From a virus, in IMG/VR virus record IMGVR_UViG_3300045988_076193, positions 1 through 42,951 of that record: a stretch of 42,951 nt of DNA. One strand, written 5' to 3'. The position numbers and the translations under genes were made by a program. The notes under the pieces were generated by a model, which saw nothing but the letters and a program-made list of their open reading frames with translations, did not search any database and was not told where the DNA came from. Below, one piece after another: positions 16,825 through 40,418 of this stretch; position 1 is the stretch's first letter; each line of letters opens with the position of its first letter.

Positions 16825-16853
16825 AGAATATCATCCGTGTTCCCATGTGTCAA
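16825..16853 (-). promoter_or_regulatory. Early rightward-type promoter for cro (TTGACA-17-TATTCT)
   Basis: -35 at 16848..16853 and -10 at 16825..16830. It is bracketed by the inverted repeat GGGAACA (16813..16819) / TGTTCCC (16838..16844). Confidence 0.55.
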
Positions 16854-16899
16854 CGATTATTTCAAAAAAATATTCAGATATTGTTTTTTTGTGCCCCTA

Positions 16900-16928
16900 T
16901 TGTGCACAATCGGGAACGGTGTTAAAAT
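16900..16928 (+). promoter_or_regulatory. Promoter for the cI operon (TTGTGC-17-TAAAAT, TG-extended)
   Basis: The -35 overlaps the palindrome ATTGTGCACAAT. -10 at 16923..16928. Confidence 0.5.
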
Positions 16929-16947
16929 CATTCTTGAGGTGAGATAC

Positions 16948-17622
16948 ATGAAAACAAATGATGAAATAATCAAGACTTTGAATGATCTTCGCAACCGCGA
17001 AGGGATTTCAATCAGTGAACTAGCACGCCGTGTTGACATGGCAAAATCGTCTGTGTCTCGCTACTTCAATGGAACGCGTGAGTTTCCATTAAACTATGTT
17101 GATAAATTTGCAAGTGCTCTACACACAACTCCGGAAAGCCTAATAGGAGTTTCTCCTGTAGATTCTTTTAAAGTCAAAAAACTAAATGTTCATTCTTATC
17201 CATACATTCCTGCTGAGATATCGGCTGGAATCTTGTGCAACGTCGATCCGCTAACTTCAGATGACGTTGAAACGATTCAACTACCAGATAGTGTTATGGG
17301 AAGATATGCCGGAGACAGTAGCATATTGATGATGCACGTTAATGGCGAATCAATGAACCAAACAATTCCAGACGGCTCTTTAATAGCCGTCAAACAATAC
17401 AGTGACATTCAAGACCTAAATGACGGGGACATTGTTGTGTTCGCAGATGATGGTGACTACGCTGTTAAATATTTCTACAACGACCGTCAGAAAGAAATTG
17501 TCACCTTTATTCCGGATTCCACCGACAAAAGATTTAGCCCTATCATGTATACCTATGAAGACCTTGAAGAAGAGAATATCAATATCATCGGCAAGGTAGT
17601 CGTATACACAGTCGTTTTATAG
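16948..17622 (+). CDS. CI-like repressor (XRE HTH + S24 LexA-type autopeptidase)
   Basis: 224 aa. HTH: ISISELARRVDMAKSSVSRYFNG. C-terminal GESMNQTIPDGSLIAV..GKVV (Ser/Lys dyad pattern). GAGGTGA SD. Confidence 0.9.
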   Translation: MKTNDEIIKTLNDLRNREGISISELARRVDMAKSSVSRYFNGTREFPLNYVDKFASALHTTPESLIGVSPVDSFKVKKLNVHSYPYIPAEISAGILCNVDPLTSDDVETIQLPDSVMGRYAGDSSILMMHVNGESMNQTIPDGSLIAVKQYSDIQDLNDGDIVVFADDGDYAVKYFYNDRQKEIVTFIPDSTDKRFSPIMYTYEDLEEENINIIGKVVVYTVVL

Positions 17623-17681: not shown

Positions 17682-18359
17682 ATGAAACTACTTATCTTAA
17701 TTGCCTTTTTGGGATCGCTCCTATTGGCTGCAATATTTGGCACATTGTCTATAGTCCAACGAAAGGACTCGAGAAAACTAAAACGGAACCTTATTATTAC
17801 CGCGTTGTCGGCAATAGCATTTATTGCAATCTTTTTTTGGATTGGCACCTATTCGGGAGAAAGCAACAGGTCAGCTGCATCTAGTTCGTATTCGAAAGCT
17901 GAGTCGTCAAAGGTCGAGTCGTCACAAGATGATGATGACAGTTACGAAGACACTGATAGCGATGACTCTGATGATGAAGAATCATCAAGCACAGAAACAT
18001 TCAACGCAGCTGACTACAACACTGGGATCACTTATGAACAATTGGCACGGACTCCAAACGACTACAAGGGCAAGAACATCACTTTAACGGGCAAAGTTAT
18101 TCAAGTCGTTGAAGGTGACGATGAAACTGATTTGCGTGTTGCAGTTGATGGTAATTATGACAATGTAATTATGGTCGGTTATGATCCAGATATTATGAAC
18201 GGATCTCGCATTCTAGAAAATGACAAGATCACCTTCTATGCTGAAAGCTTGGGTACCACCACTTACAAATCAACCATGGGTGGCAAAATCACAGTTCCAT
18301 TGGCTTTGGCCAAGAAGATTGATGACGCCGGAACTGCTCCCGACGACTATGGTGATTAG
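17682..18359 (+). CDS. Membrane/secreted protein with an acidic Ser/Asp/Glu linker (superinfection-exclusion candidate)
   Basis: 225 aa. Signal/TM segment MKLLILIAFLGSLLLAAIF plus a second TM, then the linker SSQDDDDSYEDTDSDDSDDEESSS, then a beta-rich C-terminal domain. It lies between the repressor and the integrase. Confidence 0.75.
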   Translation: MKLLILIAFLGSLLLAAIFGTLSIVQRKDSRKLKRNLIITALSAIAFIAIFFWIGTYSGESNRSAASSSYSKAESSKVESSQDDDDSYEDTDSDDSDDEESSSTETFNAADYNTGITYEQLARTPNDYKGKNITLTGKVIQVVEGDDETDLRVAVDGNYDNVIMVGYDPDIMNGSRILENDKITFYAESLGTTTYKSTMGGKITVPLALAKKIDDAGTAPDDYGD

Positions 18360-18413
18360 TCCCTTTCCCCACGCAAGCGGCGTCCCCGTGCAAGCCGGAG
18401 AGTGGGGCTGGAT

Positions 18414-18444
18414 ACAAAATAAAAAGCCTTGGCGAGGCCAAGGC
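18414..18444 (-). terminator. Minus-oriented terminator-like hairpin inside the plus-strand lysogeny block
   Basis: GCCTTGGC-gag-GCCAAGGC followed on the minus strand by TTTTTATTTT. Confidence 0.45.
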
Positions 18445-18447
18445 AGA

Positions 18448-19506
18448 ATGAGATGGAGTATGAGTAAGATACAACCAAAAAAATCGAAAACAGATTCTAA
18501 TGAGCTCCAAGTCTATGAGACCTTACTTGAAAAAAGCCAGGAAGCTTTTACTCTGGCTCTGGAATTGTACAACAGGCCAACTATTAAATACCGAGTTGAG
18601 GCTTTTTCATTCTTCATCTGCAACGCATGGGAGCTCATGCTAAAAGCGCATTTAATTTCGCTGAATGGTTTTAACTCAATTTTCTATAGAGATAATCCTT
18701 CTCGGACAATTGCTCTATCAGACGCAATAAAGAGGGTATTTACCGACAAGCGCGAGCCTCTTCGCATGAACCTTGAGAAGATTATTAGTTTAAGAGATAC
18801 TTCAACTCACTTTGTTACCGTTGAGTATGAGCAACTTTACGCAGAGTTGTTTCAGTCCGCTGTTTTCAATTACGTAAACAAATTCAACGCTTTTTTCAAT
18901 GTTGATGTTACGGAACGTTTCGATCAGCATTTTCTCTCCTTATCAGTCAACGTTGACGGACTGGATGTTAACTCAATAAAAAGTAAGTATCCTAAAGCAA
19001 TAGCTGAGCAAATTCTCAAAGAAAGTACCGAGATTCGTAACGCTACTCAAACTATCGACAGTACCAGCTTCTCAATCCCAATTGATCATACTACCTACAT
19101 CACTAAAAACCGCAAAGATGCAGATTTTATCGTATCTGTAGTGGACGGCTCAGACGACAAAGTAGCGATTATTAATCGTGTCAGAGATCCCAAAAATACT
19201 CACCCGTACTCATTTAGTGATGTTGTCGCCAAGATAAACGATTGGATACGGCTTAAAAAAATAAAGTACAGAGTCTCACATCCCGATGGAATTAAAAGAC
19301 AAAAATTTAACAGTAGCGATCTTTCGCTTTTTATCAAGTTTTACGATGCTAAATCGAACCCCGATTATGCTTACAAACACCAAGTTGGAAATACTTCGCA
19401 GTTCACCTACTCTCAAAAGCTTGTTAATCTGATTGAGAGACAAATTACGAAACATCCTTGGTCAGTGATTACTAATCTAAAGAAAGCAATAGATAAGAGC
19501 AAATGA
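18448..19506 (+). CDS. HEPN-like (DUF3644-like) protein, abortive-infection candidate
   Basis: About 350 aa (ATG at 18448 or 18460). N-terminal LALELYNRP..AWELMLKAH and an Rx4H motif (RDTSTH). AT-rich. The family name is from memory. Confidence 0.7.
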   Translation: MRWSMSKIQPKKSKTDSNELQVYETLLEKSQEAFTLALELYNRPTIKYRVEAFSFFICNAWELMLKAHLISLNGFNSIFYRDNPSRTIALSDAIKRVFTDKREPLRMNLEKIISLRDTSTHFVTVEYEQLYAELFQSAVFNYVNKFNAFFNVDVTERFDQHFLSLSVNVDGLDVNSIKSKYPKAIAEQILKESTEIRNATQTIDSTSFSIPIDHTTYITKNRKDADFIVSVVDGSDDKVAIINRVRDPKNTHPYSFSDVVAKINDWIRLKKIKYRVSHPDGIKRQKFNSSDLSLFIKFYDAKSNPDYAYKHQVGNTSQFTYSQKLVNLIERQITKHPWSVITNLKKAIDKSK

Positions 19507-19762: not shown

Positions 19763-20893
19763 ATGATGGCCAGCATTAGCAAACGTGGCAAAAAATGGCA
19801 ATATCGTGTCTCTTACAAGGATAATGATGGAACACGCAAGTATGTCAACAAAGGTGGTTTCCCCTCAAAAAAAGCTGCTGATATAGCGGCAATCGAAGTC
19901 GAACGTCAGCATAATCGCGGTGCAAATTTGGATCTTAACAAGATAACGTTAATCGACTACTGGGACAAATGGATTGAGCTGTACAAATCTGGTAAGCATT
20001 CTCGTATCACCGAAGCCCGGTATAAAACAATTCGTAAACAGTTATTAGCCTATTGGGGCGAAAGCCGTGAACTAAAATCAATTTCAAAATCAGACTGGCA
20101 GGCATTTATCAATGAGTTTGGCAAAAAAAGGGCTAAAGATACAGTCAGCAAATTGAATGGCTATGTTCGCTCAATGGCTGATTCTGCCGTCGATGACCAA
20201 ATAATATATACTAACTTCACTCATAACGTTGTCCTCACTGGTAATGAAGGCCAAGCAGGAATCATCAAATATTTGCAAGTAAAGGATTTACGCAAGCTCG
20301 TCAATTACTGCCTAGAATTTGCAGACTACGAGCATATTGCTTACTACATCATCGCAACCGGGGCACTGACCGGAGCTAGGTATTCTGAAGTTCTTGGGCT
20401 CACGTGGGATCATGTTGATCTTAAAAAGCGCGTTGTGCACATTACCAGAACGTGGGATCACAGATATGGCAGCGGCTTTGCTGCTACTAAGAACAAATCA
20501 AGTGTACGTGACATCGACATCACGAGAGAACTTGCAGACTTGCTTTTACGTCTCAAGAAAGAACAGCAAGAGGTCTACCTTGCTCAGGGATATCGTGATA
20601 GCAAACAACTATTATTTCGCAGCATACGGCATAACATGCTATCGAGCACGGCAATTAATAAGGATCTAAGGACGATCGAGAAGACTCTCGACATTTCCCC
20701 CGCGATTACTTTCCATGGGCTTAGACACACTCACGTTTCCTATTTGATTGCCAATCACGTTGACATTAACTATATTTCAAAAAGACTTGGGCATGCCAAT
20801 ACAATGATCACTCAAAAAGTCTACGCTCATCTTCTTGAAGATCAAAGAAAAGAGCAGGTATCCCAGACGCTACAAGCACTTTCGAGACTTTAG
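19763..20893 (+). CDS. int: Tyrosine integrase with N-terminal arm-binding domain
   Basis: 376 aa. Contains TGARYSE, HGLRHTHVSY and GHANTMITQKVYAH (the R..HxxR..Y catalytic set). AAGGAGG SD. Confidence 0.95.
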   Translation: MMASISKRGKKWQYRVSYKDNDGTRKYVNKGGFPSKKAADIAAIEVERQHNRGANLDLNKITLIDYWDKWIELYKSGKHSRITEARYKTIRKQLLAYWGESRELKSISKSDWQAFINEFGKKRAKDTVSKLNGYVRSMADSAVDDQIIYTNFTHNVVLTGNEGQAGIIKYLQVKDLRKLVNYCLEFADYEHIAYYIIATGALTGARYSEVLGLTWDHVDLKKRVVHITRTWDHRYGSGFAATKNKSSVRDIDITRELADLLLRLKKEQQEVYLAQGYRDSKQLLFRSIRHNMLSSTAINKDLRTIEKTLDISPAITFHGLRHTHVSYLIANHVDINYISKRLGHANTMITQKVYAHLLEDQRKEQVSQTLQALSRL

Positions 20894-21138
20894 CTTGTGC
20901 ACATTTTGTGCACCGGAGGAAAAAAACAACCGAAAATAAAAGGAAACAAAAATCCCGTAATGCCTTTATACCAGCATTCCGGGAAGCTATAGAAAGCATC
21001 TAGAAGCATAAAAACGGAGAGTAAGGGCGAAAACAAACGTATATATAATAGTAGAAAACAACTTTTTGTGCATATTTTGTGCACAAAAATAAGCCTCCCA
21101 CCATTGCTGGTAGGAGGCTTACTAATAACACATATAGC
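20894..21138. other. attP region (core not resolved)
   Basis: Non-coding A-rich stretch between int and the moron operon. It is flanked by two copies of TTGTGC-N5-TTGTGCAC (20895..20913 and 21066..21084). Confidence 0.55.
21084..21120 (-). terminator. Intrinsic terminator of the protease operon
   Basis: AAGCCTCC/GGAGGCTT 8-bp stem followed on the minus strand by TTATTTTTG. Confidence 0.7.
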
Positions 21139-21285
21139 CTAATATTGAACGATACGCACAACACATTCTTGTGCCGATCCTTGGTTTGTGGGTTCAGCGT
21201 TAGGTTGATTATATTGATTTAACTGTTCATTTGTTTTATTTACTTTATCGAAAAGGGCGTTGATTTGTTCTATTGTGTATGTCAT
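21139..21285 (-). CDS. Small ORF (48 aa) coupled to the protease gene
   Basis: Not in the track. AGGAGGAACCC precedes the ATG, and the ATG overlaps the protease stop (ATGA). Translation: MTYTIEQINALFDKVNKTNEQLNQYNQPNAEPTNQGSAQECVVRIVQY. Confidence 0.55.
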   Translation of the reverse strand: MTYTIEQINALFDKVNKTNEQLNQYNQPNAEPTNQGSAQECVVRIVQY

Positions 21286-22190
21286 GGGTTCCTCCTACTT
21301 TGGTCACTGACAATATATGAAGATGATTTGCTTTCAATTAATTTTGAAACATTTGTCTGTTGCAAAGTAATCATAATGGAGTGATGGAGACTCAAAACTG
21401 AATTTTGCAAGTTCTGATCGTCTTCGAGAGCATTAACTTTTAGACCGATTTCACGAGCCAAATCAATATTGAAGTGTCGAGCATGAGCCTTTGAACGAGT
21501 GTGTTCATTGAGCCTTTTCACTATAGCCTTTACCTTTTCATCTGGATGTGGGTCATCGGCGAACATAACAGACGAAAGCCAGCTTTCTATTAGCTCTCCC
21601 GATAATTGAACGGCATCTTGAGCGAACTTGACGTATGCGGCCGGATATTTTCCTAAAAGTAACGACCAATATTGAAGGTTGTTGGCGTTTTCTTGTAGAT
21701 CACGGTACGCTTCATCAAATTCAGAAATAATATTATAGGCAGGTAACCCCCCTATCTGAGGATCAACCGGTCCCAGGCTTGAATGCTTTCCCATCCAAAT
21801 CTTTTTAGAAGCACACGAAATCATAGTGCCTGCAGACATTGCCATGTGAGGAACGATCACCTCTATATTATCATCAAACATACTTCTAAGATATGAAACG
21901 ATTGATTCTGCAGCATTAGGATCTCCACCTGGTGTATGCAAAACTAAAGAAAGTCCCTTTTTGCGATCTAATCCATTGATGGAACTCATAAACCCTTCCA
22001 TGTCGCTATCATTGATATCAATCTGATTTTTTCGTCCTTGTTGCCAACCAGAGTAATAACAGATTATGGTTCTATTAGTTTGTTTTTCAAGGTCTTCGAG
22101 ATATTTATGCCTAAGAGAGTCTAATGGAGACGGATAAGACTTTAACTCATCGAAAATCGATGACCAACTACCACCGCCTTGATGCTGCAT
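21282..22190 (-). CDS. SDH-family Clp-fold (S49/ClpP-like) serine protease
   Basis: About 302 aa from the ATG at 22190. Family-typical core IICYYSGW..LVLHTPGGDPNAAESIV..HMAMSAGTMISCA..LGPVDPQ. Confidence 0.8.
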   Translation of the reverse strand: MQHQGGGSWSSIFDELKSYPSPLDSLRHKYLEDLEKQTNRTIICYYSGWQQGRKNQIDINDSDMEGFMSSINGLDRKKGLSLVLHTPGGDPNAAESIVSYLRSMFDDNIEVIVPHMAMSAGTMISCASKKIWMGKHSSLGPVDPQIGGLPAYNIISEFDEAYRDLQENANNLQYWSLLLGKYPAAYVKFAQDAVQLSGELIESWLSSVMFADDPHPDEKVKAIVKRLNEHTRSKAHARHFNIDLAREIGLKVNALEDDQNLQNSVLSLHHSIMITLQQTNVSKLIESKSSSYIVSDQSRRNP

Positions 22191-22273
22191 TGCTCCACCC
22201 CCCCATGTTAATCTATAAGCTTCATGTGATGTGTACGCTTTCCAAGCAAATTTGTCATGCACCCATCGCTTAC

Positions 22274-22302
22274 ATATTACCAGTGGCAATAACAATATTC
22301 AA
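22274..22302 (-). promoter_or_regulatory. Own sigma70-like promoter of the protease operon (TTGAAT-17-TAATAT)
   Basis: -35 at 22297..22302 and -10 at 22274..22279, with a 17-nt spacer. Confidence 0.5.
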
Positions 22303-22424
22303 TTAAAACTGATTAAAACATATTTAAAAAGTAAAAAATTGCAGTGCATTCTTGACAATTAATTTACAACAATAAGCCCTCCACCCGCGTTAGCGAGCAG
22401 AGGACTTTTTTGTTACCTGATATA

Positions 22425-22655
22425 TCAGTATTCTTCTCCGTCCCAGCCACGTAGACCAGGAGGACCGCAAACGGCTGATTTATGCTCCAAGGCCATTGTC
22501 ACAGACTGAACGGAGGCAACAGCATCTATAAGTTCATCAGTTGAATGCTTGTCTGAAGCGGAATCCAGCAACTCTGAAACGGCTCTCATTAAGTCACGTC
22601 TCACATAACTTTGCTCAATAACTCGTGCTTTATCAATTTTTTCAGCCATATGCAT
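22425..22655 (-). CDS. Hypothetical protein (76 aa) downstream of the endolysin
   Basis: ORF with a weak AGGGTGA SD and no recognisable motif. Confidence 0.55.
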   Translation of the reverse strand: MHMAEKIDKARVIEQSYVRRDLMRAVSELLDSASDKHSTDELIDAVASVQSVTMALEHKSAVCGPPGLRGWDGEEY

Positions 22656-22693: not shown

Positions 22694-23992
22694 TTACCTA
22701 ATGTACAGGCTTTCGCCTGGGTAAATCAAACTGTAGATTGACTTGCCATTGTTAGCCGCCAGTGTGTACATGCTGATTCCGTACTTATAGGCAATACTCC
22801 AGAAGCTATCACCATAGCGGACTGTGTAGTACGTGTGACTTGATACTGCCACTGAGTAGCCACCAGATACACGCAATACGTCTCCAGGGTGAATCACACT
22901 GTTGATGGTCTTGCCATTGTTAGAAGCCAAAGTATACATGCTCATGCCGTACTTGTAAGCAATATACCACCAACTGTCACCAGACTGAACCGTGTAGGTC
23001 GAGCCATAGCTTACTGATGGCACGCTGGTCGTTGTCAGCAGCTCAACATTGCTACGATTGATCCAGCTCATGATGCCACCAAGCAATACGTTAGATCCAG
23101 ATACTTGCTGCACGGTGTACGTCTTGCCCTGAACCCAGCTAGGCATTGCGACACCGTTCGCCCAACGGGTTGTGCCGAAGTTTACTTTAACACTATCGCC
23201 AGCTTTGATCTGGCTAAGCGTGGTGTTGTTAGCTTGCTGGCCTGCGTTGGTTGCTGGTGTGTTGGTTGATGGCTTGACGTAGGTCTTGCCGCTGTCAGTT
23301 GTCGTGCTACCGTTGTAGCCTGAATCAGTGATGCCGGTTAGATCAACGTTACCATCAAGGCCGCCAGCGCGATAGGTGGAAGTGAACTGGAAGATACCTA
23401 CATTATCAAAGCTCGGGAAGTAGCCATAGTTCGGAACAGTGGTGACGTTGTAGTCTGGATATTCCGCAAGCCATAGCTGGTAGCGACTGGCAATCTGTGA
23501 CAAGTCAATGTGACTCATCAAGAAGCTCTTATACCCGTAAAGTATTGGCGTGTACCCAGCATCGCGGATATAGTCGAGTGCCCACAGCAAAGTTGCCGTG
23601 TTGGTTGATCCAGCTTCATAGTCAAGCGCAACAATCGACCCTTTTGGCGTCTGAATCTCTGGCAAGAAATGATCTAGCACCTGCTTGGCCAAATTGGTGT
23701 TGTCGATATTCTGCCACCAAATATAGGTGTGTGCCCGCTTACCAGCGGCAATCAAAGAAGCAACCTGTGTCTTATACGTGGTTTGCTCGTACGTGCCGTA
23801 GCCGCTATAGCCACCGATTTGAGAGATCCCAAACTTGTCAGTGGAATAACCAAAGACACCGTTATCTCCTTGGTACCGGCTCCAGTCGACACCCTGATCA
23901 CCCTTGGCTGCATTTACCTGCGATGGCAAGGCAAAAGAAATAGCCGCCAAGAAGGCGACTACCAAAGTGATGAGTTTAGTTTTAAATTTCAT
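22694..23992 (-). CDS. Endolysin: signal peptide + GH25 muramidase + SH3-like region + 2 LysM
   Basis: ATG at 23992 after AAGGAGGG. N-terminus MKFKTKLITLVVAFLAAISFALPSQVNAAKG. GH25 start DQGVDWSRYQG. Two C-terminal LysM repeats (YTVQSGDSWWYIAYKYG.., YTVRYGDSFWSIAYKYG..). Confidence 0.9.
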   Translation of the reverse strand: MKFKTKLITLVVAFLAAISFALPSQVNAAKGDQGVDWSRYQGDNGVFGYSTDKFGISQIGGYSGYGTYEQTTYKTQVASLIAAGKRAHTYIWWQNIDNTNLAKQVLDHFLPEIQTPKGSIVALDYEAGSTNTATLLWALDYIRDAGYTPILYGYKSFLMSHIDLSQIASRYQLWLAEYPDYNVTTVPNYGYFPSFDNVGIFQFTSTYRAGGLDGNVDLTGITDSGYNGSTTTDSGKTYVKPSTNTPATNAGQQANNTTLSQIKAGDSVKVNFGTTRWANGVAMPSWVQGKTYTVQQVSGSNVLLGGIMSWINRSNVELLTTTSVPSVSYGSTYTVQSGDSWWYIAYKYGMSMYTLASNNGKTINSVIHPGDVLRVSGGYSVAVSSHTYYTVRYGDSFWSIAYKYGISMYTLAANNGKSIYSLIYPGESLYIR

Positions 23993-24002
23993 GGTGCCCT
24001 CC

Positions 24003-24455
24003 TTATTGCTGTGGATCAACAGATGATGGTGCCAGTTTAGCCTTAACTGCGTCTGCGGCCGCCTGAGCTGCGGCAGCCACTTTGTCTTGATTAGATGCTT
24101 CCTGATCAACAGTTTTTTGTGGATAGGTTTCTGCTAGGCTGTCTTTCAAATTAGCGTAGGATTGCTCAACTGCGTTGGCAATTGTCTTCTCGTCTGTGCT
24201 GGTGAAACCAAGCGACTTCAAACCATCTTTAACTGCTTGAATGGCAGTAGATTTCTTAACCGCACCGTCAATCGCCTTTGTCACACCGAGCTGTTCTGCC
24301 GCTGTTACCGCAGCGTTTGCCAATGGGCCTATTACCTTTACCAAAGTGAGTGCTTGCTTGTTAGCCAGCAACTGTTTTGAGATCCAAGCCCCAATGACAG
24401 GGATTGCTGCTACTGCAAGTGATACTACAAGATCTGTCCAATTATTCATCATCAT
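24003..24455 (-). CDS. Holin, LL-H family type
   Basis: About 148 aa. It has a single N-terminal TM segment (LVVSLAVAAIPVIGAWI) and a long helical tail, and it lies immediately upstream of the endolysin. Confidence 0.75.
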   Translation of the reverse strand: MMMNNWTDLVVSLAVAAIPVIGAWISKQLLANKQALTLVKVIGPLANAAVTAAEQLGVTKAIDGAVKKSTAIQAVKDGLKSLGFTSTDEKTIANAVEQSYANLKDSLAETYPQKTVDQEASNQDKVAAAAQAAADAVKAKLAPSSVDPQQ

Positions 24456-38581: not shown

Positions 38582-39193
38582 TTATTCGATGCCCTTGAGC
38601 AATTCCTCTTTATTCAGTTGATAAAGCATCTTGCGCCGCTTAAGTTCCCATTCTGGCGGCTGATCTAGCGCTTTTATCTGTTCCAACGATCGTGCTCCGA
38701 CCTTTACCTCAGTGTCTGGATAAGCAGGTGTTGTCACCGGCGAAACATCAAACAGATGATCAATGTTGTTGATTGTGCGCTCGTATTTAACCCCTCGTTC
38801 GCTTGACTTTTGCCACTTTTGCGCGTCTTTGTCTGGCGCAATCGTAAATGCAAAGCTTGACTGACTGATAATCCCTTGCCGGACGTTTTCTAGTAAGTCA
38901 CGACCGAGTTGTGTATCTGGTGGCGTCAGAGTGTACTTAAGTCCAGTGTCGTCAATGGTCAGTTCCAAATTAACGCCAGTGCGGCCTAACACTTGGTTTT
39001 GATCATGGTTAAATAGCGCCACGACATTGCTCATATCAGCATTGTCGAGCGCATGGCGGTCAATGTGCTCACGAAAACTAAATTCACCGCCGCCCATGAT
39101 TTCAGATTTCCGGTCAAATTTAAGCGCATAACCTTCGATGACAGTTGGATGTTTCTCATCCCCATCACGAATTTGCATGGGTGTCGCTGTCAT
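38582..39193 (-). CDS. HK97-family prohead protease
   Basis: 203 aa from the ATG at 39193 (AAGGAG SD at 6 nt), between the portal and capsid genes. Confidence 0.85.
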   Translation of the reverse strand: MTATPMQIRDGDEKHPTVIEGYALKFDRKSEIMGGGEFSFREHIDRHALDNADMSNVVALFNHDQNQVLGRTGVNLELTIDDTGLKYTLTPPDTQLGRDLLENVRQGIISQSSFAFTIAPDKDAQKWQKSSERGVKYERTINNIDHLFDVSPVTTPAYPDTEVKVGARSLEQIKALDQPPEWELKRRKMLYQLNKEELLKGIE

Positions 39194-40418
39194 TCGCAGC
39201 TCCTTTGTCATTAGCATCACCTCCCTTCAATTGCGATGCGTGTTCAGCTTGATATGCTTCCTTTTGATCAAGGAACACTGTGTTAAGTGTCGACTGAATA
39301 CGATCCATGTTCGGGTCTTTTAACGGTTTCTTTCCAAGCTCCGCACGTCCCTCGTTTCCAGTCCACAGTCCGCCATTAACTGCTGTATTGACGTCAGTAA
39401 TCGGCAATCCGTTTACTGATTTTGTGTCAAAGCCAATGCGATACTGATGGCGCTGGTTGTCATCAAGCAACTTTAGTTCAAACTCGCTTGTAATCGGTTC
39501 AAAGTAAAATGGAAGATCATTGCGAATATAGTCATCAGCAAGCTGCTTAACTGACTGATTGGGACTATTTTGGGCTAATCGATACGCTGGCACCCGTAAA
39601 GCCTTCGCAATCTGCGCTGTTGAATAGTTATTGCTGTTAATCAGATTAAGAACGTTGGTATCAACTTCCAACGGCTGATAATCCATCGTCGCGTCAACTA
39701 TAATTGGCGATCCAGCATCAGCACCTGCCTGTGCCCTTTCAAAATCTTCACGAATCTTCTGGCGTGCTTCGGCAGATAGGCGGCTCTCTTTTGCTTTGAT
39801 AATTGAGCCTTTCAATCCGCTCTTGAAGAACTTTTGAAGCGTGGAAACACCGGATTCTTGAAGTCCAATCTCATCACCTAAGGAAAGTAGCGGCGAGCGG
39901 CCCATGATGGTGTCATATGAAAAGAACTTCCAATGAATAACATCCTCAAAACTGCAAACTTTTTGAACACTTGCGTTGTATGGTGTGAATCGATAGACAA
40001 GATTCTCGGGATCGCTTGTGTCCACCTGCGTCTGTGATGGGGCATAGAACTCAAACATAGCTGGTTCGTTGGTTATCGGATCGCGCACAATCCGCGAATA
40101 AGCATTGCCAGTCAAAATTGCATTGACCATCATGGAAAATTTCCACTGATATGCTGATAAACGTTTGTTAACCTTTGTGTTCATCAGATAATCAATGTCA
40201 GACAAGTCTATCACTTCATCGGTTGAGCTGTCAGTAATCACTAACGGGAACCGGCTAACATCACCTGCGACAATTGAGACAGCTGTCAGCACATCGGAGT
40301 TGCGTAATGCAGAAATACCAAGGTATCCACCTCGAAATGATGGGATTACCCCAGAATCAAGCAAATGATCTGCCCAGTGAGGGTCCACTTCGGTTGCCAA
40401 TCCTCGAAATAGCTTCAT
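39165..40418 (-). CDS. Portal protein, HK97 family
   Basis: 417 aa. GGGAGGTGA SD. Canonical position. Confidence 0.9.
   Translation of the reverse strand: MKLFRGLATEVDPHWADHLLDSGVIPSFRGGYLGISALRNSDVLTAVSIVAGDVSRFPLVITDSSTDEVIDLSDIDYLMNTKVNKRLSAYQWKFSMMVNAILTGNAYSRIVRDPITNEPAMFEFYAPSQTQVDTSDPENLVYRFTPYNASVQKVCSFEDVIHWKFFSYDTIMGRSPLLSLGDEIGLQESGVSTLQKFFKSGLKGSIIKAKESRLSAEARQKIREDFERAQAGADAGSPIIVDATMDYQPLEVDTNVLNLINSNNYSTAQIAKALRVPAYRLAQNSPNQSVKQLADDYIRNDLPFYFEPITSEFELKLLDDNQRHQYRIGFDTKSVNGLPITDVNTAVNGGLWTGNEGRAELGKKPLKDPNMDRIQSTLNTVFLDQKEAYQAEHASQLKGGDANDKGAANDSDTHANS

Follow-up and report, generated by a model that had tools for sequence, protein, structure and literature searches.

SppA of Bacillus subtilis, a ClpP-fold protease of the S49 clan, is co-transcribed with a downstream partner, YteJ, which is reported to restrain it; both are membrane proteins, and SppA carries a Ser-Lys dyad. 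A comparable operon, in which a ClpP-fold protease is encoded together with its substrate or partner, is that of NfeD (1510-N) and stomatin. Here, we describe a locus reminiscent of both in the genome of a temperate siphophage of the Lacticaseibacillus casei/paracasei/rhamnosus type, as judged by megablast against phage records (IMG/VR record IMGVR_UViG_3300045988_076193; the whole stretch of 42,951 nucleotides is hereafter called the window). The locus, at 21139-22302 on the minus strand, with feature positions checked directly on the sequence, encodes an SDH-type (Ser-Asp-His) serine protease with the ClpP fold and, overlapping its stop codon, a protein of 48 amino acids (aa). The small open reading frame (ORF) is a genuine, co-conserved partner of the protease, which remains adjacent to it despite permuted gene order, and the two apparently form a transcription unit of their own, inserted at a terminator where the prophage ends. 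The distribution of the pair is sparse, phylum-hopping and islet-forming, as is typical of toxin-antitoxin and defence cassettes.

The likeness to SppA/YteJ consists in a ClpP-fold protease with an operon partner, and SppA is also the best structural match of the window protease. Unlike SppA and YteJ, however, both window proteins are apparently cytoplasmic, the proposed catalytic residues are a Ser-Asp-His triad, and the partner family is soluble, with members of 45-80 aa. Similarly, the partner of NfeD is a large SPFH membrane protein, whereas no SPFH gene lies near the window cassette. Control of a protease by a short peptide or a small amphipathic-helix protein is exemplified by Lit, which the short Gol peptide switches on in a phage-host conflict, and by FtsH, which is blocked by the small amphipathic-helix protein CIII of lambda; yet Lit and FtsH are unrelated zinc metalloproteases, and in neither case do the small component and the protease make up one mobile cassette. 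To our knowledge, few characterised bacterial immune and toxin-antitoxin systems use a protease as their effector, and we know of none in which it has a ClpP fold. A precedent is IetAS, whose IetS is subtilisin-like. This pair of a serine-protease toxin and an ATPase antitoxin serves as both a plasmid stabilisation and an anti-phage system (PMC13069673). IetAS thus resembles the window pair in being a selfish or defence module of two genes that employs a serine protease as effector, but it differs in having an ATPase partner and bears no sequence relation to the window protease. With none of these three systems does the window pair have a sequence relationship or a type of partner in common. 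The locus also recalls the classical morons of lambdoid and HK97-type phages, as an insert among backbone genes at the lysis-att end that sister phages lack and that has its own terminator and a candidate promoter; it differs from them in its cargo, a protease-partner pair, and in its small composition shift.

The partner protein consists of an N-terminal amphipathic-helix motif and a C-terminal hydrophobic strand-like motif, both conserved, joined by a variable hydrophilic linker. In every one of the close protease homologues (62-79% identity), which come from another phage, Streptococcus uberis, oral streptococci and a locus with antigen I/II-type surface adhesin genes, an ORF of 45-52 aa lies directly downstream, and these close partners follow the pattern M-x-Y-T/S-h-E-Q-I-x-x-L/I-F/Y ... 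V-R/K/Q-I/V-V/I-x-Y. For a wider survey, 80 species-genome loci were taken, 76 of which have a complete protease ORF. By hidden Markov model (HMM) matches and inspection, an adjacent small ORF is present in approximately 62 of the 76 (~80%). It lies downstream on the same strand in 32 loci, encoding 48-77 aa with an N-terminal motif of approximately E-I-x-x-L-Y-x-K-L-G-I and with clade-specific middle and C-terminal motifs; it is convergent, just past the protease stop, in 4; and it lies upstream in 26, encoding 53-90 aa and usually overlapping the protease start. The downstream gene order is that of Firmicutes, and upstream-type partners are found in Proteobacteria, Actinobacteria, Planctomycetota, Dehalococcoidia, Nitrospirota and Methanoregula, with a motif E-I-x-x-x-F-x-x-L-G-L followed by a hydrophobic strand (e.g. 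VIVETVIV, VTFIEIRS).

The adjacency is borne out by profile searches, despite the low sensitivity of HMMs for such short and divergent proteins. Among 8074 small ORFs, the N-terminal-motif HMM matched protease-adjacent ORFs only (E < 0.1), including convergent cases on which it had not been trained. A further 69 IMG/VR loci, independent of the first set, contain 5380 small ORFs; all 24 matches among these (E < 0.01) lie next to the protease and are oriented as expected, the 16 of the downstream HMM immediately downstream and the 8 of the upstream HMM immediately upstream. The upstream and downstream partner profiles align with each other over the N-terminal motif (hhalign E = 7.4e-5, probability 62%), and 40 control sets of small ORFs, drawn at random from these loci, gave nothing better than E = 0.39. 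At a strict threshold, iterative HMM searching left the two types apart; the link between them is drawn from the hhalign result with its random control, together with position. By all-against-all clustering of neighbours, no neighbouring gene of at least 70 aa recurs across the loci. A first-pass annotation of the window, made from the sequence alone, had called for a check on the co-occurrence of the two genes and had named a pair not conserved together as what would undo its proposal; on the counts above, from species genomes and viral contigs alike, the two are clearly conserved as a pair. That the small ORF arose by chance was also considered and was rejected, given the protease-adjacent HMM matches and the existence of homologues, which form 17 clusters among 5.8 billion proteins and are named at most 'hypothetical protein'.

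Public records largely overlook the partner. It is unannotated in Pseudomonas aeruginosa CP137442 (L106 3814-4014), and the equivalent ORF in a Klebsiella record (L188 3775-3978) is annotated as 'hypothetical protein' only, which amounts to an annotation gap. In the Oscillospiraceae prophage (L013-L017 3861-3995), a further ORF of 44 aa lies just upstream of the protease, besides the downstream partner of 58 aa, and it is kept in five assemblies with differing distal flanks. In addition, protease P0152 is a natural in-frame fusion of a protease and a partner-like tail. P0152 is a singleton for which no fused relatives were found, and it therefore provides weak Rosetta-stone evidence only. Its locus (L105 4001-6995, GCA_045598185.1) contains three tandem SDH-protease paralogues of 372, 303 and 316 aa, the first of which is fused in frame to the tail (MNKKNYFFKEDLLDFLSEHGLS...KKITFISRTL); this tandem arrangement hints at hetero-oligomeric rings.

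Such a tight coupling of the partner to the protease, with conserved ends and a variable middle, could also be read as that of a peptide-maturation pair, in which the partner would be the dedicated pro-peptide substrate of the protease and would release an active or signalling peptide, for example the VRIVQY-type C-terminal segment. SppA-family enzymes indeed bind C-terminal peptides in their active sites, according to the title of PDB entry 4kwb. Nevertheless, the partner sequence has no signal peptide, and no gene for an exporter, a modification enzyme or a receptor recurs nearby. Moreover, the C-terminal motif is wholly different between clades (INTGxxNxKLN, NAWNFG, VxVETVxV), leaving the N-terminal helix alone in common. 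We therefore regard maturation of a peptide as unlikely.

The features of the locus and of its surroundings in the window are as follows.

22694-24109, minus strand: GH25-LysM endolysin, at the start of the minus-strand order
22425-22655, minus strand: conserved 76-aa ORF (phrog_12658), between the endolysin and T1
22374..22407, minus strand: terminator T1 of the late/lysis operon, found by scan (15 pairs, 8 of them GC pairs; dG -27.8 kcal/mol, z -8.1)
22274..22302, minus strand: sigma-70-like promoter candidate TTGAAT-17-TGgTAATAT with an extended -10, read from the sequence, its function presumed
21282..22190, minus strand: SDH-type ClpP-fold serine protease of 302 aa (PF01972), with its ATG at 22190
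21291..21296, minus strand: Shine-Dalgarno sequence AGGAGG of the small ORF, 5 nt 5' of its ATG
21139..21285, minus strand: 48-aa partner protein (MTYTIEQINALFDKVN...VVRIVQY), whose ATG at 21283-21285 overlaps the protease TGA at 21282-21284 (ATGA)
~21084..21123, minus strand: rho-independent terminator T2 of the cassette, with a stem of 13-16 bp, a GCAA loop and a UUAUUUUU tail
~21096..22371, no strand: insertion of ~1.28 kb relative to phage C3.1, from a three-way alignment with C3.1 and BH1
20894..21083, no strand: backbone of ~190 bp from the integrase stop to T2, presumed to be the attP region, with flank matches in many Lacticaseibacillus phages (R23.9, R18.1, Lrm1, R29.1 and others)
19763-20893, plus strand: tyrosine integrase (by family match), convergent to the cassette
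38582-39220: Peptidase_S78 prohead protease (E 8e-42), adjoining the portal and capsid genes

Both flanks of the cassette match phages at 92-96%, and the cassette itself has no near-DNA match (megablast against 50,697 phage records). In the three-way alignment, phage C3.1 has the T1 hairpin alone where the window has T2, the cassette and T1, and the insert is bracketed by a short direct repeat, AA(A/C)AATAAGCC, which constitutes the start of both terminator hairpins. In phage BH1 (L002 3200-3500), ~215 bp of unrelated cargo occupies the space between a T1-type and a T2-type hairpin, which marks the site as a recombination hotspot at a terminator. T1 and T2 are related hairpin types, both starting with AATAAGCC, and bracket variable cargo in sister phages; it looks as if the recombination that exchanges cargo takes place at the terminator itself. 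An unrelated phage from a fermentation metagenome (L003), with an Amidase_2 lysin, a neighbouring cI repressor and a protease 76% identical to that of the window, has the same layout, namely a late terminator, a TTGACA-18-TATAGT promoter (11/12), the protease, the small ORF and a terminator. The T2 element also occurs in the cassettes of L003 and L107. In a Lacticaseibacillus paracasei genome, the order is again lysin, protease and small ORF (96% identical), and homology of this lysogen to the window stops at the T2 hairpin, after which come FeoA, a gene for an FeoB-associated protein and PEPCK. Since host genes follow the terminator, the cassette is the last phage element of the integrated prophage. 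As a 1.28-kb insertion relative to its close relative C3.1 with a terminator of its own (T2), the locus is a moron, apparently an autonomous one, which probably entered the lysin-att end of the phage through recombination at a terminator hairpin; the first-pass annotation had likewise described a self-contained moron in the lysin-att slot.

T1 borders the insert on its upstream side and keeps late transcription out of the cassette. Both hairpins fold far beyond shuffled controls; for T2 (dG -28.6 kcal/mol, z -6.1), none of 200 shuffles equals the native fold, and the strong terminator that had been placed at 21084..21120 is thus real, as a hairpin at ~21088-21123 followed by UUAUUUUU. The promoter is a weaker case. 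Its boxes, TTGAAT at 22297-22302 and TAATAT at 22274-22279, with TG at 22281-22282, agree with the consensus at 8 of 12 positions plus the TG, which is below the scan threshold, and would give a predicted 5' untranslated region of ~75-80 nt. The candidate is made credible by its placement just 3' of the late-operon terminator T1 and by the 11/12 promoter at the same spot in the homologous cassette of L003. The site named in the first-pass annotation is accordingly present, but the description 'near-consensus' was wrong, because only 8 of 12 positions match. The small ORF behind AGGAGG is located exactly as had been described, and the overlap of its ATG with the protease stop suggests that the two genes are translationally coupled. 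In terms of composition, the operon has a GC content of 37.5-40.5%, compared with 45-51% for the lysin, 42-49% for the tail genes and 39-43% for the lysogeny module; thus, the cassette does fall below the lysin and, as had been claimed, the structural genes, but is not distinctive, as the lysogeny module is equally low. No Rfam family and no tRNA were found in the region, the search for a tRNA including the 20894..21083 segment.

The protease matches Pfam PF01972 (SDH_protease) over residues 57-254 with 78.7 bits (cut-off 31.3), so the proposed assignment to an SDH/S49-type Clp-fold serine protease of ~302 aa holds. Its ATG at 22190 agrees with the N-termini of homologues (MxxxGGSWSS). PF01972 unites ClpP-like Ser-Asp-His proteinases related to MEROPS S49, and the window protease shares the common core with an HTPGG oxyanion loop, the AMSAGT serine and the downstream Asp and His. 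In an alignment of 37 sequences, HTPGG (85-89), Ser119 (AMSAGT), Asp143 (GPVDPQ), H236xRH239 and H269H270 are invariant, and Ser119 aligns with the nucleophile stretch of ClpP and NfeD. By sequence, the catalytic order appears to be Ser-Asp-His on a ClpP-like fold, with a putative triad of Ser119, Asp143 and one of His236, His239, His269 and His270. The enzyme is a member of phrog_11747 (E 1.6e-92), a family of unknown function. It is related to the NCBIfam equivalog NF047768 ('SDH family Clp fold serine proteinase') but lies far under its cut-off (93.2 bits vs 250). Matches to ClpP (PF00574, 17.3 bits vs a gathering threshold of 20.2), SppA (TIGR00706, 23.1 bits vs 155) and NfeD1b_N (PF25145, 25.6 bits vs 40) are likewise below the respective cut-offs.

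The AlphaFold2 model (pLDDT 87, pTM 0.85) predicts a ClpP/SppA-like core and a C-terminal helical domain. Foldseek against the Protein Data Bank (PDB) returned only SppA of B. subtilis (4kwb, 3rst), ClpPs and NfeD 1510-N (3viv), with TM-scores of ~0.4-0.6 (~0.4 when normalised to the query). A sequence search of the PDB gave no close structure, the matches being at E 0.05 or worse, and no member of this protease family appears to have been solved. On reading the sequence by eye, without a predictor, no signal peptide or transmembrane segment was seen, and the protease is therefore presumably cytoplasmic. Judged by its sequence, it belongs to a distinct subfamily of ~300 aa (phrog_11747), with a C-terminal helical domain and a small partner, rather than to the NF047768 equivalog. 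The Gram-negative-type homologues L055, L059, L061, L062, L070, L072, L091 and L095 carry an extra C-terminal strand-like motif (AFIQxAQxVLV or VVVQ) ahead of a Pro/Gln-rich tail of 20-45 aa, which Firmicutes-type enzymes lack.

A role as a second morphogenetic protease, acting on the prohead or the scaffold, might be read from weak matches to head-maturation families (NF045542, 30.7 bits vs a cut-off of 120; phrog_53, E 1.5e-6). However, the phage already encodes an S78 prohead protease next to the portal and capsid genes, with no sequence similarity between the two enzymes, which agrees with the first-pass annotation in keeping them apart. Furthermore, the cassette lies outside the structural module and is apparently transcribed separately, and sister phages that share this module lack the cassette, which also occurs outside phages. 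Therefore, morphogenesis is exceedingly improbable, and the candidate is effectively refuted.

Protease relatives are present in 401 of 185,579 species genomes (~0.2%), in many distant phyla and one archaeon, at 42-68% identity. In a library of 1.8 billion proteins, they make up 4121 clusters (at 50% identity) at E < 1e-3 and 293 at E < 1e-30, and 153 IMG/VR viral contigs carry one. Plasmids are nearly devoid of them (4 of 72,556 records), and the one small record examined, CP137442, resembles phage: filed as a 44-kb 'plasmid', it has xis and int and the appearance of a circular phage genome. Inspection of IMG/VR contigs by eye showed no clear enrichment of the gene at their ends, and no E. 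coli homologue was found at the DNA level with the Klebsiella copy as query. In phages, the gene sits in accessory slots throughout. For example, it comes after HicAB inside the structural region in Porphyromonas gingivalis phages, between the late regulator C and the lysis genes in a Shewanella Mu-like phage, and after the tail genes in Gordonia phage BeeGee. In a circular Pseudomonas phage, it follows xis-int and a 700-bp gap, adjacent to int-att, with an unannotated 66-aa ORF upstream; in a Klebsiella lambdoid prophage, it lies in the nin region, with an annotated 67-aa ORF upstream; and in an Oscillospiraceae prophage, it is at the lysin end, with a distal flank that varies between assemblies. 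Elsewhere, in oral streptococci, the two genes by themselves form an islet with mnmA/NUDIX on one side and mnmG on the other (mnmA and mnmG are tRNA-modification genes), and at one locus, where no phage genes were called, the pair neighbours an Abi_2 gene, with antigen I/II-type surface adhesin genes upstream.

These contexts bear on the possibility that the protease benefits the phage itself, by degrading host regulators or immune proteins in lytic growth or during the establishment of lysogeny, with the small protein as an adaptor. The 153 viral contigs, several temperate phages among the carriers and positions such as the Mu-like early/late boundary and the lambdoid nin region would fit such a counter-defence function. 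Yet elsewhere the pair forms an islet by itself, flanked by core genes and not embedded in a phage, and it also occurs in the locus with surface adhesins and Abi_2; in addition, the window cassette is insulated by T1 from late transcription and has its own promoter candidate, all of which make a counter-defence role rather improbable. Alternatively, the protease gene may be ordinary cargo that encodes a generic cytoplasmic peptidase for proteostasis or fitness, and the small protein may be a minor accessory with no part in regulation. Housekeeping genes are common among the genomic neighbours, and source databases name the gene only 'serine protease' or 'periplasmic serine protease'. On the other hand, its presence in ~0.2% of species yet in many phyla at 42-68% identity speaks for horizontal spread rather than a core function, and strict adjacency of the partner despite permuted order argues for an obligate pair. 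Hence, we consider a generic peptidase very unlikely.

A protease-based conflict module, for defence or addiction, is the most likely identity of the pair. More precisely, we assign a probability of roughly 45% to the protease being gated by its small partner in a two-component proteolytic module for exclusion or abortive infection, or for addiction. A defence role is a reasonable hypothesis, the functional step of which we infer, and gating of the protease is the most economical mechanism. The components would be the cytoplasmic SDH-type ClpP-fold protease and the co-translated small protein with its helix, linker and short hydrophobic strand. In the lysogen, the cassette would be transcribed from its own promoter, shielded by T1 from late transcription. 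The small protein would then bind the protease through its conserved helix and gate it, as either an inhibitor or a specificity or sensor subunit. The balance might be tipped by some perturbation, for example when another phage infects the cell or the element is lost, upon which the protease would cleave host or phage proteins, resulting in exclusion or abortive infection, or in addiction to the element. All of this is prediction: that the lysogen expresses the cassette, that the two proteins bind each other, which way the regulation runs and what role it serves.

In line with this proposal, two adjacent coupled genes, one of them small, are inherited together, as in type II-like toxin-antitoxin systems (ATGA overlap; adjacency across phyla). 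A number of observations weigh against it. The window partner matches no Pfam, NCBIfam or PADLOC family, and since it matched no protein family, no antitoxin-type DNA-binding domain was detected; the same applies to 11 partner sequences, which gave no significant Pfam match and in which no helix-turn-helix (HTH), ribbon-helix-helix or other DNA-binding domain was detected, such a domain being common, not universal, among type II-like antitoxins. In the AlphaFold model of P0152, the partner segment is not docked with confidence (pLDDT 43-65). Some upstream-type partners and start codons were chosen by eye, and promoter sites of the 8/12 plus TG kind are no rarer than chance. Scans of 144 neighbours with Pfam and PADLOC recovered integrases, HTH proteins, NUDIX proteins, specificity subunits of type I restriction-modification systems, a dCTPase-like deaminase and an AbiA-type HEPN protein, together with many housekeeping genes, and the neighbours elsewhere are mostly unrelated to defence. 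No defence model of PADLOC-DB v2 was matched by the protease at E < 0.01; the PADLOC search that the first-pass annotation had recommended thus came back empty for both proteins, the only hit of the protease being JetB at E 0.012, which is noise. We found no paper that links PF01972 to defence or toxin-antitoxin systems, no literature on the pair of protease and small partner and no functional study of any subfamily member. A domain-centric defence screen (2026) mentions IetAS alone among serine proteases (PMC13069673).

As far as our literature and database searches reach, the two-gene family has not been described. It is a more tentative proposal that the pairs from many phyla, one archaeon and temperate phages represent an unrecognised, horizontally moving two-gene system, a new anti-phage or addiction class in which a small protein gates a self-compartmentalising protease. 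If true, a ClpP-fold protease in a conflict system might be a new type of effector. What began as a single odd pair of phage genes has become a two-gene family that numbers hundreds of members, whose partner carries a recognisable motif and whose gene order varies naturally, and it offers a handle on a Pfam family without known biology. Prophage-encoded exclusion in Lacticaseibacillus casei/paracasei would, in addition, bear on the phage robustness of dairy and probiotic strains.

The lysogeny module of the window contains a further candidate. On the plus strand at 18220-19506, with a probable start at ~18502, a gene between the cI-like repressor (16837-17622) and the integrase matches the PADLOC candidate system PDC-S19 (E 7e-128) and contains DUF3644 and an EC042_2821 restriction-endonuclease-like domain. 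A separate match, to phrog_32683 (E 5e-46), covers the N-terminal 69 residues of this 428-aa ORF, which may thus represent a fusion or two distinct genes. Together with the protease cassette, it would place candidate conflict genes at both prophage ends. Between the repressor and the PDC-S19-like gene, a 225-aa ORF (17682-18359, plus strand) has a weak SpoIIIAH-like match below the cut-off (E 1.7e-4) and could be an accessory gene of the lysogeny module.

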